From: a virus
DNA: 45,009 bases
Strand: one strand, 5' to 3'
Virus genome (UHGV): UHGV-0208172
Shown here: one piece after another, positions 11,996-40,465 of the stretch
Layout of the letters: each line of letters opens with the position of its first letter
Position numbering within the stretch: the first letter of the stretch is position 1
The notes under the pieces: model-generated
What the model was told of the DNA's origin: nothing
Database searches by the model: none
What the model saw: the letters and a program-made list of their open reading frames with translations, nothing else
Position numbers and translations under genes: made by a program

Positions 11996-11999
11996 CACT

Positions 12000-14704: not shown

Positions 14705-14733
14705 ACTATAATAGCTAACTATTCACGTGTCAA
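14705..14733 (-). promoter_or_regulatory. sigma70-like promoter (class B: TTGACA-N17-TATAGT) with GTGAATAGT operator-like core
   Basis: Read on - strand: TTGACA CGTGAATAGTTAGCTAT TATAGT; 30 nt upstream of ATG at 14673. Confidence 0.55.
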
Positions 14734-14737
14734 CGGG

Positions 14738-17971: not shown

Positions 17972-18000
17972 TTGACATTACGAAAATCTTCGTTTAAGGT
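17972..18000 (+). promoter_or_regulatory. putative rightward promoter (TTGACA-N17-TAAGGT) in divergent control region
   Basis: Consensus -35 with 17-nt spacer and TAnnnT -10. Confidence 0.4.
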
Positions 18001-18144
18001 GCTTCTATATCTTAGTTACTTTGATTCCTGTTCACCTTGTAATACCCGCTTGAAACGCAGCGGCGCACCAGCGCCAGCGAAGTGTTAAGCGGCAGATTAC
18101 TGAACATATGAATTATAGTAACTTCCCTTCCTAAGTATCTCCTG

Positions 18145-18228
18145 TTGCCCTGGGCAAGCTCTATTCTCATCGGCAGCATATCTTTTAAGCCACTGATAAT
18201 TAAAAGTTTCTATAGTTGCCGTGGGCAA
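18145..18228. promoter_or_regulatory. pair of 13-bp palindromes TTGCC-N3-GGCAA (18145-18157, 18216-18228), putative operator sites
   Basis: TTGCCCTGGGCAA and TTGCCGTGGGCAA, centres 71 bp apart, in the 455-bp divergent non-coding region. Confidence 0.45.
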
Positions 18229-18331
18229 TGATGAGAGTACTTCACTCCGCTGGGGTGGGCTAACGCCCACCCTCTGCGTTGCGTACTCTTTTAAGAAATG
18301 AAAGAATCACAACGGCAACGTAACTATTCTC

Positions 18332-18360
18332 TTGCACACCCCAACATAATAGGATACTAT
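18332..18360 (+). promoter_or_regulatory. sigma70-like early promoter (class A: TTGCAC-N17-TACTAT) with conserved leader
   Basis: TTGCAC ACCCCAACATAATAGGA TACTAT TCACTTACCGAAACGAGA...GAGGAG; near-identical copies at 19738, 30714-30742 (-) and 40437-40465 (-). Confidence 0.6.
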
Positions 18361-18385
18361 TCACTTACCGAAACGAGACAGAGGA

Positions 18386-19431: not shown

Positions 19432-19556
19432 CAGGTCAATAGGTTACTATTTGGCTTTGTGACTTACGCTGCTACACAGCAGCGTATCATTTTTCTCATT
19501 TTTGTTCTATTTCACCAAACGCAACAATCGAAGCGACTATTGCAGGAGATGCAACA

Positions 19557-19737: not shown

Positions 19738-19766
19738 TTGCACACTGGGATAGAATAGACTACTAT
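19738..19766 (+). promoter_or_regulatory. sigma70-like early promoter (class A: TTGCAC-N17-TACTAT)
   Basis: TTGCAC ACTGGGATAGAATAGAC TACTAT TCATTTACACGAACGAGAGGAG. Confidence 0.55.
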
Positions 19767-19797
19767 TCATTTACACGAACGAGAGGAGAGGCTGAAG

Positions 19798-20259
19798 ATG
19801 AGTAATAAAAACGAAGTATTCGAGTACCTGATTGACCAACTACGGCAGCAGGTAAACAACAACCCATACAAGCAACAGTGCGAAGACCTGGCGCGTGAGG
19901 TGCAGTCACTTAAGAATCAGTTACGGGATGCTTCGGCGCAGCTTAAGGAACTAACCTGTGCGCTGGATTGCGCTGAAAACGAGGTTATGTGTCTTCGTTC
20001 AGTCGTTGACCTGGACCCTAAAGGCGCGATTGGGTACATCCGGCGGGCAAATAGTGCAATGACTGACACCATGCGCCGCCAATACCTTAGCAAAGCACTT
20101 GAGGAACTCGGATGTAAGGATGTGCCTGAGCAATCCGGTTGCCGCAGGGAAGATACACAGGAGTGCGAACACGAATGGAGGGTAGTGCATTACTCAGCAG
20201 GGTTAGAGACGAATAAATGCCGGCTTTGTGGGGCTGAAAAAGAGGTTCGCTACAAATGA
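19798..20259 (+). CDS. hypothetical protein with N-terminal coiled-coil and C-terminal Cys/His-rich region
   Basis: 153 aa; C-terminal CEHEW...CRLCG possible zinc-binding motif. Confidence 0.55.
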   Translation: MSNKNEVFEYLIDQLRQQVNNNPYKQQCEDLAREVQSLKNQLRDASAQLKELTCALDCAENEVMCLRSVVDLDPKGAIGYIRRANSAMTDTMRRQYLSKALEELGCKDVPEQSGCRREDTQECEHEWRVVHYSAGLETNKCRLCGAEKEVRYK

Positions 20260-20459
20260 CCAGCATCTTATTTATATGGGTACTGTCAGCGGGCCAGATG
20301 CAACTAGCGGCATCGGAAACGTTTTACTCGATGGAGGCGTGCCAGTCAGCGGCACGCGCCGCAGAGAACGCGCACTTCCTGTTCCAGGGTGACAAGCCCA
20401 ACGATTCAGAGGTACGTGCTATCTGCTCACCTAAGCGACTTGGTAAACAGGAGAAGTGA
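20256..20459 (+). CDS. small protein with hydrophobic N-terminal signal/TM segment
   Basis: 67 aa; ATGA coupling; MTSILFIWVLSAGQMQLAA. Confidence 0.45.
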   Translation: MTSILFIWVLSAGQMQLAASETFYSMEACQSAARAAENAHFLFQGDKPNDSEVRAICSPKRLGKQEK

Positions 20460-20710
20460 TTATGATTAAACTATACGCAGAGCGCGATTTAGAAATGCTC
20501 GACATGGCTAACAATTACTATTCAAGACATGTGATGGCCGTGACAGAGGAAGGGTTAAACAGTAAATCATCTATCGCCGCGGAGTTGGCGTACCGTGACT
20601 GGATTATTGATGAACAGCAAAAAGAGTTACAGAAATACAAAGACCAGTTCCCGGATTACGTAGAGTGCGCGAACTGTGGGTCAGTTACACATGTGGAAGG
20701 GGTGGAGTGA
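20456..20710 (+). CDS. hypothetical protein
   Basis: 84 aa; overlapping start/stop with neighbours. Confidence 0.45.
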   Translation: MIMIKLYAERDLEMLDMANNYYSRHVMAVTEEGLNSKSSIAAELAYRDWIIDEQQKELQKYKDQFPDYVECANCGSVTHVEGVE

Positions 20711-21015
20711 TGATTGACGTATATATCTATTGGAGCGGGATAGCTTTTAATTTTACCCTTGCCGCTGGGGTTCTTTGGTTGCTTTGGCGCTGGGTGCTGT
20801 TCCCTGCCGTAGAAGCGGCAAGCATGGTGCGGTACTACCGAAGAATCGGAAAAGTGCACGGGATTAAAGTGCACAACTGGTTCAGGCTCTTCCTCGCTAA
20901 CTACGAATTGTTTGGGCGCACGTTCACAGCGCAGCGGTGCGCCTACGGCCACTGGGAAGGGGTAGGGCGTTGGGAGGTATTTCCTGCGGAGGCTGAAAAT
21001 GAGCCTTGCAACTGA
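20665..21015 (+). CDS. hypothetical membrane protein (likely start ATG 20710)
   Basis: One predicted TM helix IAFNFTLAAGVLWLLWRWVLF. Confidence 0.45.
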   Translation: MRELWVSYTCGRGGVMIDVYIYWSGIAFNFTLAAGVLWLLWRWVLFPAVEAASMVRYYRRIGKVHGIKVHNWFRLFLANYELFGRTFTAQRCAYGHWEGVGRWEVFPAEAENEPCN

Positions 21016-21292
21016 CATCCTGAAACGAAGCGGCCTTGCGCCGCTGTCGCCGAGAGCTAAAACACAGATATGCAAGCGCAGGGGTAACGCGCTGTACCTT
21101 GAAATTCAGGCCAGGCGCAAAGCGGTCCGCGCCTGTGGATTCCAGAACGGGAAGGCCGTGAATCTCGGTGAGTTTAAGACACAGGAACGCGCCACAATCG
21201 CAAACCGGTTATTTAATTACTGGAAATCGCTGGGGTATGATGATATTCCGACGAAACCACAGAGACGACAGTACATCTGGAGACACAAATGA
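20999..21292 (+). CDS. basic hypothetical protein, possible nucleic-acid binding
   Basis: 97 aa, Arg/Lys-rich; RBS GGAGG; directly upstream of HslV-like gene. Confidence 0.5.
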   Translation: MSLATDILKRSGLAPLSPRAKTQICKRRGNALYLEIQARRKAVRACGFQNGKAVNLGEFKTQERATIANRLFNYWKSLGYDDIPTKPQRRQYIWRHK

Positions 21293-21729
21293 CTACTATC
21301 GCATTTGACGGAAAGACAATGGCCTGTGACACCCGTGTTGTGTGCGGGAGTAACTGTTACAACACAGACACTAAGATATACGAGAATGATTTCGCTGTTA
21401 TTGGTGTGGCTGGTGATGCGGGGGTTGGAATCCTTTTAGTGAAGGACGATAGTATTTTAGTGCCTAAGCATTACGACTTCGATTTCGAAGCCCTGGTGTT
21501 CGTGAAAGACACAGAAAAGGTGTACAAAGTCGCGTTTTATAAATCATGGGATTGTGCTCTTAGTTCGGTTATTCCGATTGCGGACAGTTTTGCCGCCGTT
21601 GGTTCCGGTTCGCCTTATGCACTGGCGGCTATGGAATGCGAATATTCGGCACATGGTGGCGTAGCCGTTGCATCGAAGTTCGACACTAACACCGGTGGCA
21701 AGATTATTACCAAACAACTATTAGGATAA
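21289..21729 (+). CDS. proteasome beta-subunit / HslV-like N-terminal nucleophile hydrolase
   Basis: 146 aa; N-terminus MTTIAF (Thr2 as potential nucleophile), conserved Lys region, GSGS..ALAAME near C-terminus as in HslV/proteasome beta. Confidence 0.65.
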   Translation: MTTIAFDGKTMACDTRVVCGSNCYNTDTKIYENDFAVIGVAGDAGVGILLVKDDSILVPKHYDFDFEALVFVKDTEKVYKVAFYKSWDCALSSVIPIADSFAAVGSGSPYALAAMECEYSAHGGVAVASKFDTNTGGKIITKQLLG

Positions 21730-21788
21730 TTCCTAACCGTGCTATCCTCCAGTTACTGCATACTTAATACGCACCTGGAGGATTCATC

Positions 21789-22097
21789 TTGGATAAATTT
21801 ACTGAAACAGTGACAGGCTGGCTTCTGGCTGCCGCACTAGCCGGTGGGGTAATCGGGCTAAGGCAACATAAGTCCTCTATTTCCGGCCCTATCGACGGAT
21901 TCTGCTTTATAGCAACCGGCTTCACCTGCGCCGTATTTGGCGCACCTCTTGCCGCTCAATGGTTCGGTATTACCGGCGAACGTGAAATCGCCGGCCTCGG
22001 CTTCATTATCGCTATTCTCTGGATGCCTATCTATTCCCGCCTCTCCGGTATCGTCGCCGGAGAATACATCTCACGTCAAGGAGGCACAGATGAATGA
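21789..22097 (+). CDS. holin (three predicted TM helices), TTG start
   Basis: 102 aa; GGAGGA RBS 8 nt before TTG; hydrophobic segments; immediately upstream of endolysin. Confidence 0.6.
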   Translation: MDKFTETVTGWLLAAALAGGVIGLRQHKSSISGPIDGFCFIATGFTCAVFGAPLAAQWFGITGEREIAGLGFIIAILWMPIYSRLSGIVAGEYISRQGGTDE

Positions 22098-22362
22098 GTT
22101 ATTCTGGTTCGGCGGTATGCTGGCAATCGGAGGCACATCGCTGTTTAATGTATACCACCCCAGCGTTGACGACGGACTATTTGGCCGGGTGCTCTATATC
22201 CTGACCGCTATCGTCTGCGCTGCCGGGTGTATCCACCTGTTACAGGGCGGCATGTCACCGACGCTGCCTGAGACGTTAATCACATTAGTTGCGCTGCGCC
22301 AGATTCGTCAGGCGTGGCTGTCATACGGAGGACATAAGCGTGTCTCGAAACATTTCAGATAA
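22090..22362 (+). CDS. second holin-like / antiholin-like membrane protein
   Basis: 90 aa from ATG 22090 with RBS AGGAGG; two predicted TM helices; overlaps both neighbours. Confidence 0.5.
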   Translation: MNELFWFGGMLAIGGTSLFNVYHPSVDDGLFGRVLYILTAIVCAAGCIHLLQGGMSPTLPETLITLVALRQIRQAWLSYGGHKRVSKHFR

Positions 22363-22828
22363 TGGATTGCATTTCACCGCCACGTTCGAGGGATTCCGCG
22401 GAACTGCGTATCGCGCTACGCCGAACGAGAAGTACCTGACTATTGGCTATGGTCACTACGGGCCTGACGTAACACCAGGTAAGACCATCACACCAGGTCA
22501 AGGTCTCCTGTTACTGAATCGCGATATGGCTAAGGCCGTAGCTGCGGTTGACGCTGCAGCACACCATTCATTGACACAGGCGCAGTTCGATGCAGTGTGC
22601 GACCTGGTGTATAACGCGGGTGCTGGTGTGATTGCGGCTACTACCGGAACCGGTAAGGCGTTGCGTTCCGGTGACATCGCGACGCTGCGGGCTAAACTGG
22701 CACTGTTCATCAATCAGAACGGCAAACCGTTACTCGGCCTGCGCCGCCGTACCGCAGGACGTCTGGCGCTGTTCGACGGTAAACCGTGGCAGGAGGCAGA
22801 GGCTATTGGTCGCGCGGTGAAAGGTTGA
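22340..22828 (+). CDS. endolysin, GH24 lysozyme
   Basis: FEGFRGTAYR ... TIGYGHYG lysozyme signature; GTG start at 22340 with GGAGGA RBS (track ORF starts at upstream TTG 22289). Confidence 0.85.
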   Translation: MSRNISDNGLHFTATFEGFRGTAYRATPNEKYLTIGYGHYGPDVTPGKTITPGQGLLLLNRDMAKAVAAVDAAAHHSLTQAQFDAVCDLVYNAGAGVIAATTGTGKALRSGDIATLRAKLALFINQNGKPLLGLRRRTAGRLALFDGKPWQEAEAIGRAVKG

Positions 22829-22892
22829 CACCTGAGACTAATCCGACGATACTTAAATCACCTCCTGTTCCATCCCTCTGCTCTCCAGTTTT

Positions 22893-22926
22893 ATCCCGGC
22901 CCTGACCCAGCCGGGATTTTTTTTTT
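22893..22926 (+). terminator. strong rho-independent terminator after the lysis genes
   Basis: TCCCGGC-CCTGACCCA-GCCGGGA hairpin followed by T10. Confidence 0.8.
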
Positions 22927-22948
22927 ATCTATTTTCTGTAATGACTAG

Positions 22949-22977
22949 TTGACTATTACTCTCGACCCTACTATATT
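22949..22977 (+). promoter_or_regulatory. sigma70-like promoter (TTGACT-N17-TATATT) with ACGAGA leader
   Basis: TTGACT ATTACTCTCGACCCTAC TATATT then CGACAACGAGAACGGAG before ATG 23014. Confidence 0.5.
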
Positions 22978-23013
22978 TACTCCATCGACAACGAGAACGG
23001 AGTAGAGAGAGAA

Positions 23014-23202
23014 ATGATGACTAAGATTAAGCATACCGATAACTGGGGCGATTTCATGGAGATAGAGAAGTGCCGGGACGGGACATTACTTATAACTTGT
23101 ACAGACGGAGATAGCGACGAATCGGTTAGTGTTAACGTGAGTATGGATGATTTTATGATTATTGTTGGGCAAGTGGCGTCTTTTTACGGAGATGATAAAT
23201 GA
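23014..23202 (+). CDS. hypothetical acidic protein (62 aa)
   Basis: First ORF after promoter at 22949. Confidence 0.45.
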   Translation: MMTKIKHTDNWGDFMEIEKCRDGTLLITCTDGDSDESVSVNVSMDDFMIIVGQVASFYGDDK

Positions 23203-23348
23203 AAATCACAGATATTGAAGCATTCGAAGATGCACAACTGATGGCTCGCATCGCCATTAATAACCTGAGCGACAATATCCCGGCGGACGCGTTCTGGGCC
23301 GCTGCGATGCGGGCACTGAAAGCAGCTTATGCAGGAGAGAAGAAATGA
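23199..23348 (+). CDS. small hypothetical protein (49 aa)
   Basis: ATGA-coupled ORF below track cut-off; MKITDIEAFEDAQLMARIA... Confidence 0.35.
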   Translation: MKITDIEAFEDAQLMARIAINNLSDNIPADAFWAAAMRALKAAYAGEKK

Positions 23349-23503
23349 GCGAGTCAGAAGGAAATATCACAACACCATCCGCCGGGAAGAAAGTCAACCG
23401 CACCCCGTTCCCGACACGCGAGGAACTGATGAAACGTAACAGTTTCCCCGGGCCGGACAAGAACAAATATCTCAATCGCATGTGGGGAGAGCGTAAAGAA
23501 TGA
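23345..23503 (+). CDS. small hypothetical protein (52 aa)
   Basis: ATGA-coupled ORF; MSESEGNITTPSAGKK... Confidence 0.35.
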   Translation: MSESEGNITTPSAGKKVNRTPFPTREELMKRNSFPGPDKNKYLNRMWGERKE

Positions 23504-23673
23504 CTAACAACGAATACGAGAAACTTAGCGTCGAATCCGCGACCGGTGAATCTGAAATAGCATGGATTGACACCAACATTGAGCACCACTTACGGCAAGT
23601 AGACATCCTTATGGAACGCCGCCGTGAACTTATTAACCGCTTTAACCTGAACAAAGGTGACGCCAATGCCTAA
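23500..23673 (+). CDS. small hypothetical protein (57 aa)
   Basis: ATGA-coupled ORF; MTNNEYEKLSVESATGESEIAWIDT... Confidence 0.35.
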   Translation: MTNNEYEKLSVESATGESEIAWIDTNIEHHLRQVDILMERRRELINRFNLNKGDANA

Positions 23674-23818
23674 AATCACAATCACATCGCTCGAGCGCCG
23701 TATTCTGGGGCTTGAGTCGGAGAAACAGACGTTAGGCGGGCAACTATCAATTAACGGTGAGTTTCAACTGGAGGCGTTTAAGTTGCTGCTTGAGCGCATG
23801 AAGAATGAAAGCGCTTAA
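23666..23818 (+). CDS. small hypothetical protein (50 aa)
   Basis: Overlapping-start ORF; MPKITITSLERRILGLESEKQ... Confidence 0.35.
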   Translation: MPKITITSLERRILGLESEKQTLGGQLSINGEFQLEAFKLLLERMKNESA

Positions 23819-23987
23819 GCCGGTAGTTATTGATGGCGTCCTGTGGAAACCCTACTCGGTTAATCACATCGACGCCGACGGGAAGAAGTTCAGCTTCTAC
23901 ATTTTTGCAATTAGCCGTGAGCACGCGGCCTGTGTGGTCGACGATATACGTGAGACGGCGTGGCTTGGTGATGAGATAGTGGGGTGA
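23805..23987 (+). CDS. hypothetical protein (60 aa)
   Basis: Track ORF in tandem small-gene array. Confidence 0.4.
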   Translation: MKALKPVVIDGVLWKPYSVNHIDADGKKFSFYIFAISREHAACVVDDIRETAWLGDEIVG

Positions 23988-23991
23988 GAGT

Positions 23992-24252
23992 ATGGAACAG
24001 ATTGAGCAACTCAAGATGGACAACAAAGACCTTAAGAAGGCGCTGGATAAGATGAACGGTAAATATTCAAAAGCAACTCAGGAGCTGACCGCGGCGAAAC
24101 TGGAAGTTGAACACTTAGTTCGTGTACGCAACATGCTAGAGAAAGAAAAAATTTCACGTAGCCAGAAAATGCGAACAGACACAAAAATATCAATGTTAAT
24201 TGGTATCGTGGTTGGAATGTTAATTATGTGGGGTGTTGGATATGTTCAGTGA
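23992..24252 (+). CDS. coiled-coil protein with C-terminal TM anchor
   Basis: 86 aa; heptad-like N-terminus, C-terminal ISMLIGIVVGMLIMWGVGYV. Confidence 0.5.
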   Translation: MEQIEQLKMDNKDLKKALDKMNGKYSKATQELTAAKLEVEHLVRVRNMLEKEKISRSQKMRTDTKISMLIGIVVGMLIMWGVGYVQ

Positions 24253-24394
24253 CATTAACGCAGCAATCGAAGAAGCAATCTGGCGACGTTACAACGGCAC
24301 TTCTGCCTGGTACAACGCGGTAATATGGTCGCCGTGGTGCAGGACCGCGATAACAAATATCCGAATGCGATGTGGACAACGAGGAATTTCTTAG
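24242..24394 (+). CDS. small hypothetical protein (50 aa), weak
   Basis: Only + frame open between neighbouring ORFs; Trp/Cys-rich, low plausibility. Confidence 0.25.
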   Translation: MFSDINAAIEEAIWRRYNGTSAWYNAVIWSPWCRTAITNIRMRCGQRGIS

Positions 24395-24632
24395 GATGAT
24401 TACCAGCATTCCGAACCTGATTAAAGAATTTGGCACGATGGCGGAGACATGCCGGCAAACCGGTATCAACGAAATGACGATTGCCAAGTACAGTAAAGAC
24501 GTTGATTGTGAGCGCCATGTAATTTATAACAATCGTCTGATGACGCACGTTAAGACAAGCCCGGTGTTATTCACGCGCCGGGGTATCACTAAAACAGAGC
24601 AACGCATTGCTAAAAAGGAGAGCGGGGAATGA
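24372..24632 (+). CDS. putative HTH DNA-binding protein (likely start ATG 24396)
   Basis: HTH-like segment AETCRQTGINEMTIAKYSK. Confidence 0.5.
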   Translation: MDNEEFLRMITSIPNLIKEFGTMAETCRQTGINEMTIAKYSKDVDCERHVIYNNRLMTHVKTSPVLFTRRGITKTEQRIAKKESGE

Positions 24633-24811
24633 TTGAGATTTTGAGAGCTGCAAATGCCGCTGGCGACCTGGTGTTTTGGCTGGCCTTTCTCGGTGTGCTG
24701 ATAAAACAACCGACTTTGTTTAACAGTCTTCCCCGATATCTGTGGTGGCCTATGTTTTTAGGCATGGGTGTATCGGGCGTGGCGGGCATCCTGTTGTGGT
24801 TTTTCAAATGA
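24629..24811 (+). CDS. small membrane protein (two TM helices)
   Basis: 60 aa; ATGA coupling; two hydrophobic helices. Confidence 0.45.
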   Translation: MIEILRAANAAGDLVFWLAFLGVLIKQPTLFNSLPRYLWWPMFLGMGVSGVAGILLWFFK

Positions 24812-24912
24812 GACTACTAATCATACCTAACGCATGGGCTATTGCCGTAGCTAACGACCATTACGGCGGCGATGGTAAAAGAGCACCACGACACGGCCTA
24901 TATAACTGATAC

Positions 24913-24934
24913 AAGCCCTCTACGGAGGGCTTTT
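24913..24934 (+). terminator. rho-independent terminator after early region
   Basis: GCCCTC-TACG-GAGGGC hairpin followed by TTTTCT. Confidence 0.6.
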
Positions 24935-24991
24935 CTGTACATCCCGCCCAATCCCCTTATATAATCCATTTAGACGCGTAGGGCGCGTCTG

Positions 24992-25576
24992 GTGCGCTCT
25001 GATGGTCAGACGCATATGCAAGGGGATTCTATGAAGCTGAAACTTAAGCAGCCATCGCCAGAGGTGGTGCAAGCTGCACATGAAGAAGCTGTTAGTGCAA
25101 ACCGCCGCCGTAGACGACCGCGCGGCAAACAGAGCCTTTATCAATCATCCCGTAATTCCGCCGCGTTGTGGGACCCGGACTATTGCGACGCGTTAATCGA
25201 GTTCTTCGACCGCACGTCATGGGAACTTGTGCCTACGTCTAAGGGTGATAAACGCCCGCTGATTCAGGATAAGCCCCCGTCTCTGGCCCGCTTTGCCTTA
25301 CACATCGGCGTCACTATCCCGATTATTAAGCTGTGGTTGCGAGAGATTCCCGCATTTGCAGAAGCCTGGGAGACCGCACAGGCACTGGAAGAGGCATACT
25401 TCACTGAGACCGGGGCCGCGGGTATATCCGCTACGTTTGCCGCTGCGAAACTGGGCCTAAGCAAAGAAAAACCGGTTGAATCCACCGAAGAAACAGCACC
25501 GACTGAGATTATTTTCAGTGTCGCAGAGCCTGTAGGTAAAATTGTAACAACGAACATGGGCGAGGTAGAGGAATGA
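24992..25576 (+). CDS. terminase small subunit (likely start ATG 25031)
   Basis: HTH-like SLARFALHIGVTIPIIKLWLRE; immediately upstream of and overlapping TerL; RBS AAGGGGA before 25031. Confidence 0.75.
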   Translation: MRSDGQTHMQGDSMKLKLKQPSPEVVQAAHEEAVSANRRRRRPRGKQSLYQSSRNSAALWDPDYCDALIEFFDRTSWELVPTSKGDKRPLIQDKPPSLARFALHIGVTIPIIKLWLREIPAFAEAWETAQALEEAYFTETGAAGISATFAAAKLGLSKEKPVESTEETAPTEIIFSVAEPVGKIVTTNMGEVEE

Positions 25577-26823
25577 GTATTCAGCTATCCGCACCACAGG
25601 CGCTGTTCCTGAACTGCAATAATAAATACAAAGCCTATGTTGGTGGCTTCGGCAGCGGCAAGACATTTGTCGGCTGCCTCGACCTGCTTACGTTCATGCT
25701 CAAGCACCCCGGTACGCGACTCGGATACTTCGGCCCTACGTACCCGGCTATCCGCGACATCTTCTACCCGACATTCGAGGAAGCAGCGAACCTGCTTGGC
25801 CTTGATGTGCTGGTTAAATCCGGCGACAAAGAAGTCGTGGTTACTCGTGGTAAGACGGTTCTCGGGACCGTCATCTGCCGTTCGATGGATAACCCCGGCT
25901 CTATCGTCGGCTTCAAAATCGCTGCTGCAGTCGTCGATGAGTTGGACGTATTGAGCCGCGAGAAGGCTGAGCTGGCGTGGAACAAAATCGTCGCCCGTAT
26001 GCGTCTGGTTATCCCTGGTGTAACTAACCACATCTCCGTTACCACGACGCCAGAAGGGTTCAAGTTCGTCTATGCCAAGTTCAAAGAGAACCCGACTCCG
26101 AGTTACTCGATGGTGCAGGCGTCCACTCACGAGAACGCGCGATTCCTGCCTCCGGATTACATTAGCTCGCTGACTGAGACTTACCCCGCGCAACTGATTA
26201 ACGCGTATCTGAATGGGGAGTTCGTCAACCTGACATCCGGCAGCGTCTACTACGCCTACGACCGCCGTAAGCATCGCAGCAAAGAGACAATTCAACCTGG
26301 CGACACGCTGTACATCGGGCAGGACTTCAACGTTACGAAGAACGCCAGCGCCGTGTATGTGCAACGTAAAGACGGCTGGCACGCAGTAGCAGAACTGAAA
26401 GGCCTGTTCGATACGCCGGACACCGTGCGCGTAATTACTGAGAAGTGGAAGTCGCAAGGCCATCGCATCGTCGTTTACCCTGACGCCAGCGGCAAGAACC
26501 GCAAGACCAACTCGGCATCAATCTCAGATATTGCGTTACTCCAGCAGGCCGGGTTCGATGTTCGCGCTAAATCTGCCAACCCTCCGGTTAAAGACCGTGT
26601 TTTAGCCGTGAATACCGCACTGGAAAAAGGTAAGCTGTGGGTTAACGACCACTTATGCCCCGAGATAGCGAAGACGCTGGAGCAGCAGGCATACGACGAT
26701 AACGGAGAGCCGGCCAAAGACGGCGTTATTGACCATATGGCGGATGCTCTCGGCTATCCTGTAGTTTACGAGATGCCTGTGGTTAAACCCGTAATCAACA
26801 TCCCGGTGACTTTCGCACTTTAA
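25573..26823 (+). CDS. terminase large subunit
   Basis: Walker A GGFGSGKT near N-terminus; 416 aa; followed by portal gene. Confidence 0.85.
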   Translation: MSIQLSAPQALFLNCNNKYKAYVGGFGSGKTFVGCLDLLTFMLKHPGTRLGYFGPTYPAIRDIFYPTFEEAANLLGLDVLVKSGDKEVVVTRGKTVLGTVICRSMDNPGSIVGFKIAAAVVDELDVLSREKAELAWNKIVARMRLVIPGVTNHISVTTTPEGFKFVYAKFKENPTPSYSMVQASTHENARFLPPDYISSLTETYPAQLINAYLNGEFVNLTSGSVYYAYDRRKHRSKETIQPGDTLYIGQDFNVTKNASAVYVQRKDGWHAVAELKGLFDTPDTVRVITEKWKSQGHRIVVYPDASGKNRKTNSASISDIALLQQAGFDVRAKSANPPVKDRVLAVNTALEKGKLWVNDHLCPEIAKTLEQQAYDDNGEPAKDGVIDHMADALGYPVVYEMPVVKPVINIPVTFAL

Positions 26824-26835
26824 GAGGATTATTCA

Positions 26836-28317
26836 ATGTTAACTATGAACGGTCAGAATCAGGGTGTTAAGACAAAACACCGGGAATGGCTGCATCACTT
26901 CGATAAATGGCAGAAGGTACGCCACGCGCTGGAAGGCGACCTTATTCACTATCTCCGTAACGTCGGGAAGAACGAGCCTGACCCGACCTACGCGGCACAG
27001 CGACAGGAAGAATACGAGAACGGCGCTATCTGCTACAACTTCACTAAACGTACCCTGGCTGGGATGGTGGGGTCAGTGATGCGCAAAGACCCTGAGCAGA
27101 TTATCCCGCCTGAGCTTGAGTACCTGTTACGCAATGCCGACGGTTCCGGTGTCGGACTGTGGCAGCACGCGCAGGATACGCTAATGGAGATTGACTCGGT
27201 AGGCCGTGGTGGGTTGCTGGTGGACGCGCCGGAGACTGCTGCGGCAACGGCAGCCGAACAGAACGCGGGATTATTAAACCCGGTCATCGCATTCTACACC
27301 GCAGAGAACATCATCAACTGGCGACTGACACGCATCGGTTCTGTTAACCGGGTGACGATGGTCGTGTTGCGCGAGGTGTGGGAATACTCGGAACCGGGCG
27401 CGGAGTTCGAAACAAAGTTCGGTGAGCAATACCGCGTTCTCGATTTGATTGACGGGCGCTACCGCCAGCGTATTTACCGCTTCGATGCCGAAGGTGGCGC
27501 TCAGGGTGAAGTAAAAGAAATCTTCCCGGAACTTGGCGGACAGTTACGCGGCAAAATCCCGTTCACGTTCATCGGGGCGAGCAACAACGATGCCACCATT
27601 GACGACGCACCTTTGCTACCGTTAGCTGAGCTTAATATCGGGCATTTCCGCAACAGCGCCGATAATGAGGAATCCAGCTTCGTCGTGGGCCAGCCCACTC
27701 TGTTCATCGCCCCTGGTGAGAATATGAGCACGGAACAGTGGACCGAAGCCAACCCTCACGGCGTGCGCATGGGGTCGCGTTCAGGCCACAACATTGGCTA
27801 CGGCGGTAATGCGTTTCTGGTTCAGGCCGGAGAGAACAATCTCGCCAAGCAGAACATGCTGGATAAAGAGAATCAGGCCATTCAGATTGGTGCGCAGCTT
27901 ATTACCCCGACGCAGCAAATCACTGCAGAATCGGCCCGTCTGCAACGTGGCGCTGATACGTCTGTTATGGCGACAATCGCGCGTAATGTAAGCATGGCGT
28001 ATACCGATGCGTTGCGCTGGGTAGCCGCGATGCTAGGGCTGCGTGAAGGCACAGAGATTGAGTTCAAGCTGAATATGGAGTTCTTCCTGCAGCCGATGAC
28101 CGCTCAGGACCGTGCACAGTGGATGGCGGATATTAACGCGGGCCTACTACCAGCTACCGCTTATTATGCTGCGTTGCGTAAGGCGGGGGTAACCGACTGG
28201 ACCGACGAGGACATTCAGAACGCTATTGAGGATGCGCCGCTGCCGTTGGGTGCTGCTACTCCGGTAGCGGGGGAGATTCCGCAGTCGGCGCAGCAACAAG
28301 ACACCGCCCAGCAGTAA
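26836..28317 (+). CDS. portal protein
   Basis: 493-aa ORF immediately after TerL with RBS AAGAGGA; position and size typical. Confidence 0.75.
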   Translation: MLTMNGQNQGVKTKHREWLHHFDKWQKVRHALEGDLIHYLRNVGKNEPDPTYAAQRQEEYENGAICYNFTKRTLAGMVGSVMRKDPEQIIPPELEYLLRNADGSGVGLWQHAQDTLMEIDSVGRGGLLVDAPETAAATAAEQNAGLLNPVIAFYTAENIINWRLTRIGSVNRVTMVVLREVWEYSEPGAEFETKFGEQYRVLDLIDGRYRQRIYRFDAEGGAQGEVKEIFPELGGQLRGKIPFTFIGASNNDATIDDAPLLPLAELNIGHFRNSADNEESSFVVGQPTLFIAPGENMSTEQWTEANPHGVRMGSRSGHNIGYGGNAFLVQAGENNLAKQNMLDKENQAIQIGAQLITPTQQITAESARLQRGADTSVMATIARNVSMAYTDALRWVAAMLGLREGTEIEFKLNMEFFLQPMTAQDRAQWMADINAGLLPATAYYAALRKAGVTDWTDEDIQNAIEDAPLPLGAATPVAGEIPQSAQQQDTAQQ

Positions 28318-28328
28318 GTTCGCATATA

Positions 28329-28348
28329 GCCCCGAAAGGGGCTTTCTT
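28329..28348 (+). terminator. hairpin attenuator / weak terminator after portal gene
   Basis: AGCCCC-GAAA-GGGGCT followed by TTCTTA. Confidence 0.4.
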
Positions 28349-28353
28349 ATAGT

Positions 28354-29430
28354 ATGCTATTAACTTTAGTGCCACAGGATTTAACTATGAGCTTACTTAC
28401 ATCCCTAATCAGCCACCAGATATGGCTGCAACGCACCGCATCCGGTGAAGTGAAAGACCTTGCGCCGTTTCTTCAGGAAATGCGAGACGAAATCAAACGG
28501 CAGGTGCTGTTATTCGGCGACGACGGTCGCAGCACTGCGCGACTGAATAAATTGTTACGCGACCTGGAAGAAGCACTGAGCGGACTTACAGGCGACTGGC
28601 AAACAAAGCTGACAGAAGACCTTAAAGAACTGGCGGCGTATGAAGCGGAGTGGAATGTAAAAACGCTGACGGCTAACGTAGACGCGGAATTTGTTACGCC
28701 CACTGCTGAACAGGTGTGGGCCGCTGCCGAGTTTCAACCATTATCGTTAGGTGACAAGCCAGTCGACTTCACTAAGCTGATGGCAGGCTGGGGTGAAACA
28801 GAAGTCGCGCGCCTTGTAACCGGTGTTAAGATGGGTTTCGTTCAAGGCCTGACAACGCGGCAGATTGTTAAGAATGTCGTAGGCGCTGGCGGGCTGGCGG
28901 ACATCTCTGAGCGTAACGCAGCTACTGTAATCCGCACCGCGCTGTCCCATGTATCTAACGAAGCACGCAACGAGACGTACCGCCAGAACGACGACATCAT
29001 CGAGAAATATGAATGGGTGTCAACGCTGGACAGCCGTACCAGTACGATTTGCAGAGCCAAGGACGGTATGAAGTGGGAAATTGGTAAGGGGCCGATGCCC
29101 CCCGCCCATCCGAACTGTCGAAGTACCACTGCACCCGTAATCAGTTCGGAGTTCGACTTCCTGGATAAAGGCGCAAAACGCGCGGCTAAGGGCGCAGACG
29201 GCGGTACTCAGGTAAGCGCGGACACCACCTATTACGAGTTCCTGAAACAACAACCGGCATGGTTTCAGGATGAAGCACTCGGGCCAACCCGCGGTAAGAT
29301 TTTCCGCAACAGCGGTATATCGCCAGAAGAGTTTCGCGTAATATCTGTAGATGGTTTCGGGAATCCGCTCACGCTTAAGCAGATGGCGGAACTCGATAAA
29401 CGTGTTGCTGATTATCTGAAAGGGGATTAA
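28354..29430 (+). CDS. head morphogenesis protein (Mu F / SPP1 gp7-like by position)
   Basis: 358-aa ORF following portal; alternative start ATG 28387. Confidence 0.6.
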   Translation: MLLTLVPQDLTMSLLTSLISHQIWLQRTASGEVKDLAPFLQEMRDEIKRQVLLFGDDGRSTARLNKLLRDLEEALSGLTGDWQTKLTEDLKELAAYEAEWNVKTLTANVDAEFVTPTAEQVWAAAEFQPLSLGDKPVDFTKLMAGWGETEVARLVTGVKMGFVQGLTTRQIVKNVVGAGGLADISERNAATVIRTALSHVSNEARNETYRQNDDIIEKYEWVSTLDSRTSTICRAKDGMKWEIGKGPMPPAHPNCRSTTAPVISSEFDFLDKGAKRAAKGADGGTQVSADTTYYEFLKQQPAWFQDEALGPTRGKIFRNSGISPEEFRVISVDGFGNPLTLKQMAELDKRVADYLKGD

Positions 29431-29891
29431 TGATGGGCTTTTTCAAAGTAACTGATGTGCCGTCGCGTCGTGTAGTCCAGTACGCCCGCGTGTCTGGCTC
29501 CGGTGAGAACGTGGTATTTATTGAGGACGAAAGTGTACTTGGTACACCGGTAGACGACATGCCGTTTGCGGATAAAACCGGTATCGCGCTACCAGCGGCG
29601 GGCATGCTTTACGAGATTCCGTATCTGGCGGACGCTGGCGACGTATACTTCTCTGTGCAACCGAAAGACGCTGAACTGGCAGACGGCAGCGCAACTATCC
29701 CTGTTGAGGTTAAGGCAGGCAAAGCGCCGTATACTCTGACCTGGTACAAAGACGGTAAGGAAGTGGTAAACGCTCCGGAAGAGGCATTGTCTCTGACGGT
29801 TAATGCAGTTGGCGAATACTTCGTTAAAGTCGCCGATGCTGACGGCGTAGAGGCGGTAAGCAAAGCGGCGAAGGTTACTAAGCCAGAATGA
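29430..29891 (+). CDS. Ig-like domain-containing protein (possible capsid decoration)
   Basis: 153 aa; C-terminal YTLTWYKDGKEV...GEYFVKV I-set-like signature. Confidence 0.55.
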   Translation: MMGFFKVTDVPSRRVVQYARVSGSGENVVFIEDESVLGTPVDDMPFADKTGIALPAAGMLYEIPYLADAGDVYFSVQPKDAELADGSATIPVEVKAGKAPYTLTWYKDGKEVVNAPEEALSLTVNAVGEYFVKVADADGVEAVSKAAKVTKPE

Positions 29892-29893
29892 TA

Positions 29894-29916
29894 AAAGGCC
29901 CCATTATGGGGCCTTA
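29894..29916. terminator. bidirectional terminator (AAGGCCCC-ATTAT-GGGGCCTT)
   Basis: Hairpin between convergent + packaging genes and - moron; same family as 5535 and 37986. Confidence 0.6.
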
Positions 29917-30212
29917 ACTTTCCATACTTCCCTTAGCGCTACGAGTTTATGATTACCAATATCCCTTGATATTATTGAATCTGTAAAACCATTGAACCAT
30001 GATTTCATCCAGTCAGACGTTCTGAAATCGGCGTACAGAATATGTATTGTTTGCGGAGTGTCAACGTCGTAATGTTGGCACACATAAACACATCCGCTGG
30101 CGAATATAACAGCTTTAAACGTATCGTAGTCTTCTGAATCCGGGAACTCGCTGGAGTCCCCAACAAGATACCTGTACGCGTATTTTTTAGTAGTCTTCTT
30201 TCTTTTCCGCAT
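29904..30212 (-). CDS. hypothetical protein (102 aa), moron gene
   Basis: Track ORF; last codons lie within terminator hairpin. Confidence 0.45.
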   Translation of the reverse strand: MRKRKKTTKKYAYRYLVGDSSEFPDSEDYDTFKAVIFASGCVYVCQHYDVDTPQTIHILYADFRTSDWMKSWFNGFTDSIISRDIGNHKLVALREVWKVKAP

Positions 30213-30221
30213 AGTACTTTC

Positions 30222-30461
30222 TCAGAAGTGCCTGACGGGTTGTTTAAACTTCCAGTCACAATCTACCTGTTTAATAGCGCCTTTTGCAACAAGGCTGTCT
30301 ATGAAATCCTGGCCCGAATTCGTCTTGTACCACGTATATCTGTTCCCGACTTTTACTCCAGGTAGGCTGTGATACACAACGGCATCAACCACCATAAAAG
30401 AGACACCGATAGCCCCTTTCTCTGCATATAGTTTTTTGCTCACACTGCTCATGTAGCGCAT
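30222..30461 (-). CDS. hypothetical protein (79 aa), moron gene
   Basis: Track ORF in reverse 3-gene operon. Confidence 0.45.
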   Translation of the reverse strand: MRYMSSVSKKLYAEKGAIGVSFMVVDAVVYHSLPGVKVGNRYTWYKTNSGQDFIDSLVAKGAIKQVDCDWKFKQPVRHF

Positions 30462-30493
30462 CTCCCACGTAGATAGTTAGTAAGGTAAAGCCC

Positions 30494-30679
30494 TTAGGCC
30501 TTACGAATTGTATATCCATACCCGAGGTAGCCGTTTTTCTCTTGCATAGCGGAGGCGCGCAACATAGCAGCATTCTCGCCTTTTACTACAGCGACCACAT
30601 AATCCGTAGAGTCTGGGCCGTTTTCCACAACTTCATACGCCTGTACGTTCTTGGTGGTAAGTTCATATGTGTTAGTCAT
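30494..30679 (-). CDS. hypothetical protein (61 aa), moron gene
   Basis: First gene after class A promoter; RBS AAGGAA. Confidence 0.5.
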   Translation of the reverse strand: MTNTYELTTKNVQAYEVVENGPDSTDYVVAVVKGENAAMLRASAMQEKNGYLGYGYTIRKA

Positions 30680-30713
30680 TTCTAAATTCCTTATCTCTCG
30701 TTTCGATAAGTGA

Positions 30714-30742
30714 ATAGTATCCTATTATGTTGGGGTGTGCAA
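30714..30742 (-). promoter_or_regulatory. sigma70-like early promoter (class A: TTGCAC-N17-TACTAT), reverse orientation
   Basis: Read on - strand: TTGCAC ACCCCAACATAATAGGA TACTAT TCACTTATCGAAACGAGAGATAAGGAA...ATG. Confidence 0.6.
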
Positions 30743-30794
30743 ACTATTTGTTTACGTATTCCATATATTCCGCCTAATTGTAAATGTTGGAATA

Positions 30795-30837
30795 AACTAT
30801 TCGAATAGTTGACTTTTCACTGAAAATATGCTAAGCT
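30795..30837 (+). promoter_or_regulatory. putative rightward promoter (TTGACT-N17-TAAGCT) overlapped by perfect 16-bp palindrome AACTATTCGAATAGTT
   Basis: Palindrome 30795-30810 overlaps the -35 hexamer (30809-30814). Confidence 0.45.
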
Positions 30838-31016
30838 CCACCTGAGCTTGTGAAGTATGAACAAGCGACCGCGGCGCGGGCAGGTAACGGAGCGGGACGT
30901 AAGTCCTGAGTGTAGTTACGCTGACGCGTTCGGAAGGGCCATACTCTATTGCTTGTGTAAAAAGTAACTGGTTTACTGAGATTACGCCGTTTCTATGTTT
31001 AAATGATAAGGACTAG

Positions 31017-31039
31017 CGCCCCGCTTTAAGGCGGGGCTT
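31017..31039 (+). terminator. hairpin terminator/attenuator about 25 nt upstream of the spanin start codon
   Basis: GCCCCGC-TTTAAG-GCGGGGC followed by TTT. Confidence 0.45.
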
Positions 31040-31061
31040 TACTTATCGAGAAAGGAGAAAC

Positions 31062-31448
31062 ATGAATCTTAAAGCAACTGTCGTAGCAGGAGCATGTTCC
31101 ATCATCCTGGTCTACGCATACGGCATCTATCAGTACCGCAGCGGCTGGAGTGAAGGTCGGGCGAATCTCGTTTCGCAGCAACAGCAGAAAGCACTGGCCG
31201 AATTAGCTAAGAAAACACAACGGCAGCAGCAGGATGAATCAAAGGCCGCAGCCGCTGACAACGAAGGCAAGACGAAATCAGAGGTAATCACCCGTGAAGT
31301 CGTTAAGTACATTAAAACGCCTGGCCGCAGCGTGTGCGCTTTTGACCCTGAGCGCGTGCAGCTCAAGTCCCGCGCCGTCGCCAACGCCAATTCCATCCCC
31401 GGATACGACGATGATGCAGCCGCCGTGCAAGCTGGCCCCGCCAAGTAG
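31062..31448 (+). CDS. i-spanin (Rz-like inner membrane spanin)
   Basis: 128 aa; N-terminal TM VVAGACSIILVYAYGIY, Gln/Ala-rich coiled-coil; RBS AAGGAG; overlapped by embedded lipoprotein gene. Confidence 0.75.
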   Translation: MNLKATVVAGACSIILVYAYGIYQYRSGWSEGRANLVSQQQQKALAELAKKTQRQQQDESKAAAADNEGKTKSEVITREVVKYIKTPGRSVCAFDPERVQLKSRAVANANSIPGYDDDAAAVQAGPAK

Positions 31449-31557
31449 CGACGCTGACGAGGACTTAGCTATTGACGTTCAGAATGCCGAATGTGTACGG
31501 CAACTGAGACTGAAAGTGTTCATGTTGCAGGATTACGTGAGGAATATTCTGGAATAG
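31294..31557 (+). CDS. o-spanin (Rz1-like outer membrane lipoprotein)
   Basis: 87 aa; lipobox LTLSAC, Pro-rich; overlaps the i-spanin 3' end in another frame and extends beyond it; GTG start with GAGGT RBS. Confidence 0.7.
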   Translation: MKSLSTLKRLAAACALLTLSACSSSPAPSPTPIPSPDTTMMQPPCKLAPPSSDADEDLAIDVQNAECVRQLRLKVFMLQDYVRNILE

Positions 31558-31585
31558 TTGCCTTGCATGTTGGAATAATTTATTC

Positions 31586-32344
31586 TTGACATGTAAATCC
31601 GGGTGGCCCGGGTTCCAACGTCCAGGGGACATACTGACTATGAATCGTTTTTTACGTTATCCGTTCCAGGAAGAAGCTGGGGCAGAAGATAAATCTGGCG
31701 GCGGTGACGCGCCGAAAATGTTCACCGCTGAAGAAGTTCAGGCGCTGATCGAGAAAGAAGTTGCCGGGCTTAAGGCTAACCAGGAAGCGTTGTTGGCGGA
31801 GAAGAAAGAAGCCGCTCGTAAAGCAAAAGAGGCCGAAGAAGAGCGGCAGCGCGCACATCAGGAGGCTTTAAAAGCCGCTGGTAAGATGGACGAGTTCGAA
31901 AAGACGATTCGTAGCCAGTATGACCCGGTGTTAGCTGAGAAAGATGGTCGCATCTCCAGAATGGCAGAGCGCATCCTCGGCAGCGAACGTAAAGCGGTGT
32001 TAGGCTCTTTCGCTGGTGACTTTATTACCCCGGAAGCAGTGGACATCCTCGCACCGTTCGTTAAGACTGAGTTCGACGGCGATGATGTGGTTACTAAGTT
32101 TGTCGGCGCAGACGGTAACGTAATCACGACTGACCCGGAACAGTTCCGCAAATACCTGCGTGAACATAAAGCGTTTTCGCATTTGATTAAAGCAAATGCA
32201 GCTTCCGGCGGCGGGGCTTCCGGTAGCAAAGGCGGCGGGGCCGCACCAGCGTTTAAAGACATGAGTGAAGCAGAGCGTATCGCTCTGTACGAATCGAACC
32301 CTGCCGAATTTGAACGGCAACTTAAAGCCCTGAGGAAAAAATAA
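31586..32344 (+). CDS. capsid scaffolding protein (likely start ATG 31640)
   Basis: Ala/Glu/Lys-rich, coiled-coil character; immediately upstream of major capsid gene. Confidence 0.65.
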   Translation: MTCKSGWPGFQRPGDILTMNRFLRYPFQEEAGAEDKSGGGDAPKMFTAEEVQALIEKEVAGLKANQEALLAEKKEAARKAKEAEEERQRAHQEALKAAGKMDEFEKTIRSQYDPVLAEKDGRISRMAERILGSERKAVLGSFAGDFITPEAVDILAPFVKTEFDGDDVVTKFVGADGNVITTDPEQFRKYLREHKAFSHLIKANAASGGGASGSKGGGAAPAFKDMSEAERIALYESNPAEFERQLKALRKK

Positions 32345-33393
32345 TGGCAATTACTACTATCGGCGACATCGTAACTGGTAAAGAATCGGTCATTCTGTCT
32401 TACATGACAGAGGACCCGGTAGAGAAAACCGCGTTCTTCCAGTCCGGTATCCTTACCCCGACTCCGTACGCCGCTGCTATCGCAAACGGCCCATCCAACA
32501 AAGCTGTTCTGCCGTACTGGAAAGCGATTGATACCTCTATCGAGCCGAACTACTCGAACGATGTATATCAGGACGTCGCTACCCCGCGTAACGTGCAGAC
32601 CGGTGAGATGATGGCGCGCGTAGCGTACCTGAACGAAGGTTTCGGCCAGGCGGACCTGACTGTAGAACTGACCAGCCAGAACCCGCTGCAATCTGTAGCG
32701 TCCCGTCTGGATAACTTCTGGCAGCGTCAGGCACAACGTCGTCTGATTGCCACTACGCTCGGCCTGTACAACGACAACGTTGCCGCGACCGATGCTTACC
32801 ACGAGCAGAATGACATGGTTGTAGACGTGTCTGCTACTCTTGGCTTCGACTCTGGTGCGTTCATCGATGCTACCCAGACTATGGGTGACGCTCTGATTGG
32901 CAACGGAGGTGAAGTGTTGGGTGCTATCGCGATGCACAGCTTCGTTTATGCGCAGGCTCGTAAGCAGCAGCTTATCGACTTCATCCGTGACGCTGACAAC
33001 AACACCATGTTCGCCACCTACCAGGGCTATCGTGTGATTGTTGACGACAGCATGACCGTAGTCGGTACAGGTGGCGACCGTAAGTTCATCTCCATCATCT
33101 TCGGCAACGGCGCTATCGGTTACGGGGAAGGCAACCCGACCAATCCGCTGGCCTATGAGCGCGAAGAGTCTCGCGGTAACGGTGGCGGTGTAGAAACCCT
33201 GTGGACCCGTAAGACTTGGTTGCTGCACCCGTTTGGCTACAGCTTCACCAGCGCGGTAATCACCGGCAACGGCACCGAGACCGTCGCACGCTCTGCTTCC
33301 TGGCAGGACCTGGCGAACGCCTCCAACTGGAACCGCGTTGTTGAGCGTAAGCATGTACCGATTGCCTTCCTGGTAACTGGTGTCGGTGCTTAA
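32344..33393 (+). CDS. major capsid protein
   Basis: 349 aa; RBS GAGGAAAAAA; follows scaffold; followed by hairpin terminator typical of abundant capsid mRNA. Confidence 0.75.
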   Translation: MAITTIGDIVTGKESVILSYMTEDPVEKTAFFQSGILTPTPYAAAIANGPSNKAVLPYWKAIDTSIEPNYSNDVYQDVATPRNVQTGEMMARVAYLNEGFGQADLTVELTSQNPLQSVASRLDNFWQRQAQRRLIATTLGLYNDNVAATDAYHEQNDMVVDVSATLGFDSGAFIDATQTMGDALIGNGGEVLGAIAMHSFVYAQARKQQLIDFIRDADNNTMFATYQGYRVIVDDSMTVVGTGGDRKFISIIFGNGAIGYGEGNPTNPLAYEREESRGNGGGVETLWTRKTWLLHPFGYSFTSAVITGNGTETVARSASWQDLANASNWNRVVERKHVPIAFLVTGVGA

Positions 33394-33410
33394 GGTTAAG
33401 CTATAATCGA

Positions 33411-33433
33411 GAGGGACTTCGGTCCCTCTTTTC
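33411..33433 (+). terminator. rho-independent terminator/attenuator after major capsid gene
   Basis: GAGGGAC-TTCG-GTCCCTC followed by TTTTC. Confidence 0.6.
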
Positions 33434-40421: not shown

Positions 40422-40436
40422 TGTTGGTGTAAGTGA

Positions 40437-40465
40437 ATAGTACCCTATTATATTGGGGTGCGCAA
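40437..40465 (-). promoter_or_regulatory. sigma70-like early promoter (class A variant: TTGCGC-N17-TACTAT), reverse orientation
   Basis: Read on - strand: TTGCGC ACCCCAATATAATAGGG TACTAT TCACTTACACCAACAATG. Confidence 0.55.

Follow-up and report, generated by a model that had tools for sequence, protein, structure and literature searches.

The lysis genes of UHGV-0208172, a viral sequence analysed here over its whole length of 45,009 nucleotides (referred to as the window; features lie on the plus strand unless stated otherwise), are found at two loci. The first (21789-22927) contains two small holin-type genes, an endolysin gene of the GH24 family and a terminator, and the second (31062-31557) contains an overlapping pair of spanin genes situated 8.2 kb downstream of the endolysin gene. 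A first-pass annotation of the window had already proposed these five open reading frames (ORFs), all of which are present both in the sequence and in the ORF list, and had regarded their separation as unusual. Proteins were assigned to families using PHROG profiles, Pfam and NCBIfam, combined with hydropathy and motif scans for transmembrane (TM) segments and lipoboxes. NCBIfam returned no match that reached its curated cut-offs, and of the five proteins only the endolysin matched a Pfam family.

The first gene of the upstream locus (hol1, 21789-22097, 102 amino acids) begins with a TTG at 21789, with a GGAGG located 7 nt before it. Since the next in-frame ATG occurs only at codon 79, this TTG is the only sensible start, and both the TTG and the GGAGG are kept in four Kagunaviruses. 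The product is assigned to phrog_2359 (E = 1e-29) and displays three hydrophobic segments in a class I-like arrangement, while the Sciku record labels the equivalent gene 'antiholin/holin class I'. The second gene (hol2, 22090-22362, 90 amino acids, phrog_2508, E = 3e-33) has an ATG at 22090 that overlaps the hol1 stop by 8 nt (ATGAATGA), and its product has one strong TM segment, a second, weaker hydrophobic stretch near the N-terminus and, at the C-terminus, a basic tail (HKRVSKHFR). Judged from their sequences, both proteins have what is expected of holins and antiholins, being small, predicted to span the membrane, encoded next to an endolysin and members of PHROG holin families. They probably act as a holin/antiholin pair, in which either protein may be the holin.

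The endolysin gene (22340-22828, 162 amino acids) starts with a GTG at 22340 that is preceded by a GGAGG and overlaps hol2 by 23 nt. The protein matches the Pfam family Phage_lysozyme (PF00959) over residues 15-138 with 95.2 bits, where the gathering threshold is 22.3, and is also assigned to PHROG endolysin. It is approximately 92% identical over 161 amino acids to 'Endolysin mtEC340M' (PDB 8HP8), the chain of which begins with VSRNIS, exactly as translated from the GTG in the window. The hydropathy scan found no hydrophobic segment in the first 80 residues. By its sequence the enzyme is therefore not of the signal-anchor-release (SAR) kind but a canonical cytoplasmic endolysin needing a hole-forming holin. 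The TTG start of hol1 and the GTG starts of the endolysin and of the outer-membrane spanin (o-spanin) are identical in context in EC3-1, Ivi and Sciku. Jersey carries ATG at the positions equivalent to the endolysin and o-spanin starts, which fixes these two sites. The genes hol1, hol2 and endolysin are translationally coupled, and the locus ends with a strong intrinsic terminator (22893-22927) whose 8-bp stem (-13.8 kcal/mol, z = -3.7) leads into a tract of 9-10 U. The earlier description of a tightly overlapping unit of holin, holin-like protein and GH24 endolysin, with non-ATG starts at its first and last gene and a strong terminator behind it, is thereby borne out.

At the second locus, the inner-membrane spanin (i-spanin) gene (31062-31448, 128 amino acids) starts with an ATG preceded by AAGGAG, and its product is assigned to the Rz-like phrog_2536 (E = 1e-55). 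The sole hydrophobic stretch of this protein covers residues 1-24 (TM segment at approximately 5-23, maximum Kyte-Doolittle value 1.94), and the remainder is polar and rich in Gln, Ala and Lys, with a predicted helical, Gln-rich periplasmic domain and a cysteine at position 92. The o-spanin gene (31294-31557, 87 amino acids; phrog_1267, E = 1e-20; phrog_5672, E = 5e-30) has a GTG start preceded by GAGG and lies in a different (+1) frame. It shares 155 bp with the i-spanin gene and runs 109 bp beyond its end, an architecture termed 'overlapped'. The N-terminus of the o-spanin (MKSLSTLKRLAAACALLTLSA, followed by C) contains the lipobox LSAC with Cys22 as the lipidation site and Ser23, not Asp, at +2, and continues into a Pro-rich linker with further cysteines at 45 and 67. 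The sequence features by which the class is recognised (Summer 2007, Kongari 2018) are found in this pair, namely a TM i-spanin, a lipoprotein o-spanin, overlapping genes and periplasmic cysteines. These include the TM domain and the lipobox, the lack of either of which had been named in advance as grounds for giving up the spanin assignment.

A 'Jersey' family of spanins with overlapped architecture has been described, with K1G, K1H and K1ind1-3 among its members, in which the o-spanin gene shows a 155-bp overlap and the protein has invariant Cys45 and Cys67 (Kongari 2018, PMC6139136). On sequence grounds, the spanins of the window are members of this published i-/o-spanin family. The i-spanin is 93% identical to that of K1H and 66% identical to that of Jersey (tblastn), and shares 88-95% identity with its counterparts in other Kagunaviruses; a search recovered it from 662 phage records, with a coverage of at least 80% in 505. 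The location of the pair in the head module, the lack of a Pfam or NCBIfam match above cut-off and the lack of a known experimental test could be taken to mean that 31062-31557 encodes small head-assembly or other proteins whose hydrophobic N-termini arose by chance. However, this is very improbable given that every element of the spanin signature is present (a TM protein of type II, an overlapping lipoprotein with LSAC and Ser at +2, a Pro-rich linker and conserved cysteines), the E value of the Rz-like PHROG match and the curation of the family as 'Jersey' spanins by the group that defined spanins (PMC6139136). Moreover, the same family occurs at a comparable place in a Dhillonvirus-like phage, and the ORF list of the window offers no other spanin candidate next to the endolysin.

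The public records of EC3-1 (L001, 10972-11118) and S102 (L006, 3205-3351) restrict the annotated o-spanin gene to its last 147 nt, a 3' fragment starting from an internal ATG and so without signal peptide and lipobox, and the DNA of EC3-1 does hold the GTG equivalent to that at 31294. Annotators of Guernseyvirinae should seek the spanins inside the head module, where the o-spanin gene is cut short or overlooked in several public records.

The stretch of about 12.5 kb around the two lysis loci shares 88-91% of its nucleotides with Kagunavirus siphophages of E. coli (fEg-Eco19, EC3-1, NTEC3 and others) and matches 488 phage records, chiefly of Salmonella Jerseyviruses and Escherichia Kagunaviruses. 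Similarity to Kagunavirus genomes is also seen in the left half of the window. With a length of 45 kb, compared with the 44-46 kb typical of genomes of this group, the window is by its sequence an almost complete genome of a Kagunavirus (Guernseyvirinae). No fewer than 15 ORFs lie in the 8.2 kb from the endolysin to the spanins, along with a strong terminator and two promoters, so that the lysis genes do not form a contiguous cassette of the lambda type, and the separation noted in the first-pass annotation is confirmed. However, it is not peculiar to this genome. A synteny map was made by tblastn over related loci, in which the order hol1, hol2, endolysin, terL, MuF-like gene, i-spanin, o-spanin is identical in all eight loci that hold both gene sets, Jersey and a Dhillonvirus-like phage among them. 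The distance from endolysin to spanins is 7.8-8.7 kb in Guernseyvirinae and approximately 6.6 kb in the Dhillonvirus-like phage Bas85. In Jersey, the type phage of the subfamily, the holins are gp62-63 and the endolysin gp64, while the spanins are gp09-10, between the Hoc-like gp07 and the scaffold gp11. Bas85, whose proteins are only 43-48% identical, has two holin genes and the endolysin before the terminase and the spanins directly after a head-morphogenesis gene. The same layout is annotated in EC3-1, Ivi and Sciku, the last of these curated by the Center for Phage Technology.

This arrangement has also appeared in print. The genome announcement of Schulenberg describes the holin/antiholin and endolysin as 'genetically separate' from the spanins (PMC6763661). 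In Golestan, holins and endolysin are ORF66-68 and spanins ORF7-8 (PMC7203180), and in SeF1 the spanins are gp9-10 and the holins and endolysin gp63-65 (PMC9409062). The genome announcement of Sciku does not discuss the lysis genes, and a literature search for papers joining 'Jerseyvirinae' and 'Rz1' found none. As compared by sequence and synteny, the split layout is an old and conserved trait of the lineage that is already annotated and published, and in this sense ordinary. The proposal that it is unusual is hence not upheld. The idea that the separation instead reflects a recent rearrangement or mosaic insertion particular to this genome could draw on the variable island that occupies the slot just before the spanins (29904-30742), and on the leader region upstream of the spanins, where conservation is much higher than in the flanks, as might follow a recent exchange. 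However, order and spacing are alike in all the relatives examined, even where protein identity falls to 43-48%, which refutes this explanation and leaves it next to no credence. Compared with the Guernseyvirinae Jersey, K1G/K1H/K1ind, Sciku, Schulenberg, Golestan and SeF1, the window has the same lysis genes in the same order and spacing with the same neighbours (the Hoc-like gene before the spanins, the scaffold gene after them) and the same 155-bp overlap, and differs only in a variable minus-strand island and by ordinary sequence divergence.

In phage lambda (S-R-Rz/Rz1) the components are equivalent, namely a holin with an antiholin, a soluble endolysin and, in overlapping frames, a TM spanin together with a lipoprotein spanin of the outer membrane. 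The window spanins, being the first genes after a unit of promoter, leader and hairpin and lying ahead of the head genes, also resemble the lambda lysis genes in position. However, the lysis genes of lambda are contiguous on one late transcript, whereas those of the window are split, with the spanins in another predicted unit. In lambda the antiholin arises from a dual start instead of from a second gene, and Rz1 is wholly embedded in Rz whereas the o-spanin gene of the window extends past that of its partner. There is no detectable sequence homology between the window spanins and Rz/Rz1. The lambda R protein is a transglycosylase, whereas the endolysin of the window belongs to the GH24 lysozyme family. 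The lysis genes of T7 (3.5, 17.5, 18.5/18.7) are likewise scattered, with the spanins unlinked to holin and endolysin. In T4 the spanin genes are not near those of the holin and endolysin either (PMC6139136). The lysis genes of that phage (e, t, pseT.3/pseT.2) are scattered, with spanins unlinked to holin and endolysin as in the window, but the T4 holin and endolysin genes are also unlinked from each other, whereas those of the window overlap, and the T4 spanins have a 'separated' architecture. T4 and T7 belong to unrelated groups. With unclustered lysis genes known from T4 and documented for Guernseyvirinae, the finding of a split matters little in itself.

Judging by promoter and terminator motifs in the window, the two lysis loci belong to two distinct predicted transcription units, whose promoters are of different types. 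The first type (family A) is a sigma-70-like motif, TTGCAC-N17-TACTATTCA, that is part of a repeated 47-nt element (extended form TTGCAC-N17-TACTATTCAyTTA..GAAACGAGA). Four copies occur, three exact and one with a single mismatch, at 18332-18378 and 19738-19769 on the plus strand and at 30696-30742 and 40430-40465 on the minus strand, and by sequence they look like one co-regulated promoter class. The copy at 19738-19769, to which an annotated promoter of Jersey corresponds in position, heads a run of genes of 3.1 kb (19798-22828) that ends with an HslV-like gene, hol1, hol2 and the endolysin gene before the terminator at 22893-22927. The copy at 18332 heads a short unit ending at a terminator-like hairpin (19465-19486), and the two minus-strand copies head accessory islands within the structural region. 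The second type (family B, TAGTTGACT-N17-TAnnnT) has two copies. One of them (22946-22977, TAGTTGACT-N17-TATATT) lies right after the lysis terminator, again with an annotated Jersey promoter at the equivalent place, and heads a unit of small ORFs, terS, terL and the genes for portal, MuF-like and Hoc-like proteins. The other (30806-30837, TAGTTGACT-N17-TAAGCT) is conserved in relatives and heads a unit consisting of the leader, spanins, scaffold and capsid genes down to a terminator at 33409-33430. The claim that the spanins stand at the head of the late structural operon is accurate in that they open a predicted transcription unit before scaffold and capsid. As a gene order it is wrong, since five packaging and head genes, from terS to the Hoc-like gene, come earlier. 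As far as the motifs allow, all of these promoters resemble the ordinary sigma-70 consensus of the host and carry no information on timing.

Taken together, the window very probably encodes, at two loci, the lysis system that is standard for a siphophage of the Guernseyvirinae (Kagunavirus). The holin/antiholin and cytoplasmic endolysin genes would close a rightward unit just before the packaging genes, and the spanins, downstream in the head module, would be the first cistrons after a sigma-70-type promoter and structured leader of their own. By analogy with lambda, the holin would build up in the inner membrane and trigger, after which the endolysin would escape and degrade the peptidoglycan. 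Pre-assembled, disulfide-linked spanin complexes, anchored by a TM helix in the inner membrane and by lipid in the outer membrane, would then be freed to fuse the two membranes. In the lambda model, intact peptidoglycan restrains the spanins, which act only after holin and endolysin (reviewed in PMC6139136). Since spanins are needed only before the holin triggers, their genes may sit anywhere that is expressed during morphogenesis, and because peptidoglycan would gate their action, possession of a promoter of their own does not in itself imply that disruption of the outer membrane is separately controlled. Consequently, the suggestion of different transcriptional control is sustained for the predicted units and promoter types, but separate control of outer-membrane disruption does not follow from it. 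For those engineering these therapeutic phages, or the EC340-type endolysin, the practical point is that the genes for disrupting the outer membrane are to be found at a second locus.

It has to be weighed whether the split is instead a timing device, with holin and endolysin made early and the spanins only together with the late head genes, so that rupture of the outer membrane would be tied to morphogenesis. The predicted holin unit starts at a family A promoter, a type shared with the first rightward genes by the replication module and with the two minus-strand islands, whereas the spanin unit has a family B promoter and a structured leader, and a strong terminator divides the two units. 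However, the packaging unit right after the endolysin also has a family B promoter, so promoter family does not cleanly equate with structural genes; the promoters look like host sigma-70 promoters, with no phage regulator identified; and in lambda it is the peptidoglycan that gates the spanins, not the time of their synthesis. The only time-course RNA sequencing of a close relative, the Kagunavirus K1B4, places the lysozyme gene in a broad 'middle' class together with MuF-like, capsid and tail genes (PMC12645636). Placing holin and endolysin in an early region was an assumption of the first-pass annotation. On balance, a timing device is unlikely.

Several points weigh against the reading of a standard two-locus lysis system. 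The promoters and terminators on which the separate units are based are consensus predictions from sequence. Neither spanin matches any Pfam family at E ≤ 0.01, so these proteins are analogues and not detectable homologues of lambda Rz/Rz1, and the label 'Rz/Rz1-type' is apt for architecture and function, while no Pfam spanin model supports it. A literature search found no experimental test of Jersey-family spanins or of phrog_2359 and phrog_2508 holins. The K1B4 study sorts genes into three coarse classes and leaves the spanins unmentioned (PMC12645636), which makes it too coarse to order the two lysis loci in time, and its supplements contain no per-gene table of phage expression.

The 305 nt before the i-spanin gene (30757-31061) are the best-conserved stretch of the region, with 96-98% identity to other Kagunaviruses (flanking genes 83-95%) and 96-97% identity to the Salmonella Jerseyviruses S102 and ER5 (flanking genes 72-86%). 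For the portion that is transcribed, 20 of 21 relatives show 97-100% identity. A 36-amino-acid ORF within it (30857-30967), annotated as hypothetical in some records, was rejected as coding. One-nucleotide indels at three sites break it in five of the 21 relatives and its ATG is a GTG in one, while the surrounding RNA is 97-100% identical, and the leader region is therefore regarded as non-coding. Instead, positions 30843-30945 are predicted to fold into a structured leader RNA in which a linker of 2 nt separates stem-loop I from a long stem-loop II. When IMG/VR was scanned for the pattern, 50 stretches were returned, many of the contigs having two copies. In such relatives one copy precedes the spanins, and a diverged paralogue follows the early rightward promoter (37537-37640 in Sciku). 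The fold is supported by clear covariation between the two types of copy. One pair of the lower stem is C-G in nine sequences, U-A in six and A-U in three, and another is U-A in eight, A-U in seven and G-C in three. The apical hairpin is kept although its sequence has wholly changed between types.

A covariance model (R1) built from an alignment of both copy types (A1) scores 119.6 bits at 30843-30945 of the window, 83 bits at the second copy in Sciku and 38 bits (E = 5e-8) in Jersey, where the match (7297-7395) lies within the annotated 'gp08' just before the spanins. It found no second copy in the window, even with filters off, and no match in Bas85. The window hence has one leader copy, whereas Sciku and many IMG/VR relatives carry a second in the early control region. 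Rfam returned no family for the window at the gathering threshold, nor for 30650-31120 at E ≤ 1.

The leader resembles the HK022 put sites and the lambda PR'-6S-tR' region, in which a structured RNA of two stem-loops likewise comes right after a promoter and before a hairpin. Its occurrence in relatives as two paralogous copies, in an early and a late unit, recalls putL/putR and nutL/nutR. However, the element of the window is longer than put (approximately 100 nt), lies at the 5' end of the transcript and is followed by a hairpin without a good U tract. The likeness to HK022 put and the lambda leader is structural, and antitermination by the window leader is putative. In HK022 (24000-32000, assumed here to hold the PL/PR-put region of early control), the best match of R1 had an E value of 0.92 and nothing was significant. 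Possible roles of the leader are antitermination in the manner of put and nut or stabilisation of the 5' end, both of them candidates. The more specific proposal, that it is a new cis element like put or nut and that read-through of downstream hairpins switches on the spanin-first late unit, is distinctly improbable. If it were true, the spanins would hold the place of the lysis genes in lambda, as the first genes after a late antitermination leader. As a candidate for an uncharacterised regulatory RNA in widely used therapeutic phages, the leader is the only element of the region that merits a separate look.

Between leader and spanins lies a GC-rich hairpin (31018-31037, -17.2 kcal/mol), 24 nt before the i-spanin start. 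Because it has only a weak U tract, its role as the terminator of the proposed promoter-leader-terminator unit is doubtful. The structure itself is kept, as Sciku has a compensatory change from C-G to A-U in the stem, and Jersey has a hairpin of different sequence, also without a U tract, at the same position. In the minimum-free-energy fold, GUUUCU at 30989-30994 pairs with AGAAAC at 31056-31061, enclosing this hairpin, and the latter motif partly overlaps the Shine-Dalgarno sequence of the i-spanin gene. The predicted pairing suggests a possible occlusion of translation, in a stretch that is too conserved for a covariation check.

Among the neighbouring features, an HslV-family peptidase-like gene (21289-21729, phrog_1040, E = 4e-35, with a weak match to Pfam Proteasome) adjoins the holin genes in the same predicted unit. 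It is annotated likewise in EC3-1, Ivi and Sciku and lies upstream of the holins in Kagunaviruses, though not in Jersey. The genes for terS, terL, portal, MuF-like head morphogenesis protein and Hoc-like decoration protein (phrog_3945) occupy 24992-29891, as identified from ORFs and the annotation of relatives. The scaffold and major capsid genes (31640-33393) follow the spanins. The space from the Hoc-like gene to the spanin promoter is taken up by a minus-strand island of three small ORFs (29904-30742) with its own family A promoter at 30711-30742, and where this island converges with the Hoc-like gene a GC-rich hairpin (29895-29915, -16.3 kcal/mol, weak U tract on the plus strand) is possibly a bidirectional terminator. 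In relatives the slot 29904-30679 holds a beta-clamp gene (Ivi), a methyltransferase gene (S102), one small ORF (EC3-1) or nothing (Jersey), and from these sequences it looks like a hotspot for accessory genes.

Further observations concern control sequences elsewhere in the window. A third promoter family (GTTGACA..GAATAGTTAGCTATTATAGT) has minus-strand copies in the block of replication genes (8171-8200, 11967-11996 and 14705-14734). An early rightward control region (17973-18290) consists of a promoter, TTGACA-N17-TAAGGT, followed by approximately 280 nt without a convincing ORF, and contains a hairpin, GGGGTGGGC-TAAC-GCCCACCC, at 18254-18274. In Sciku and one relative (L022), the leader paralogue fills the first part of this region, where the window has unrelated sequence in its place; in the 3' part (18187-18380) the window retains 95% identity to L022. 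Lastly, a 12-mer, ATGTTGGAATAA, considered as a regulator site on account of its plus-strand copies at 30784-30795 and 31567-31578, is not distinguishable from chance in 45 kb and was set aside; its two copies flank the spanin pair, each a few bases before a TTGAC motif.

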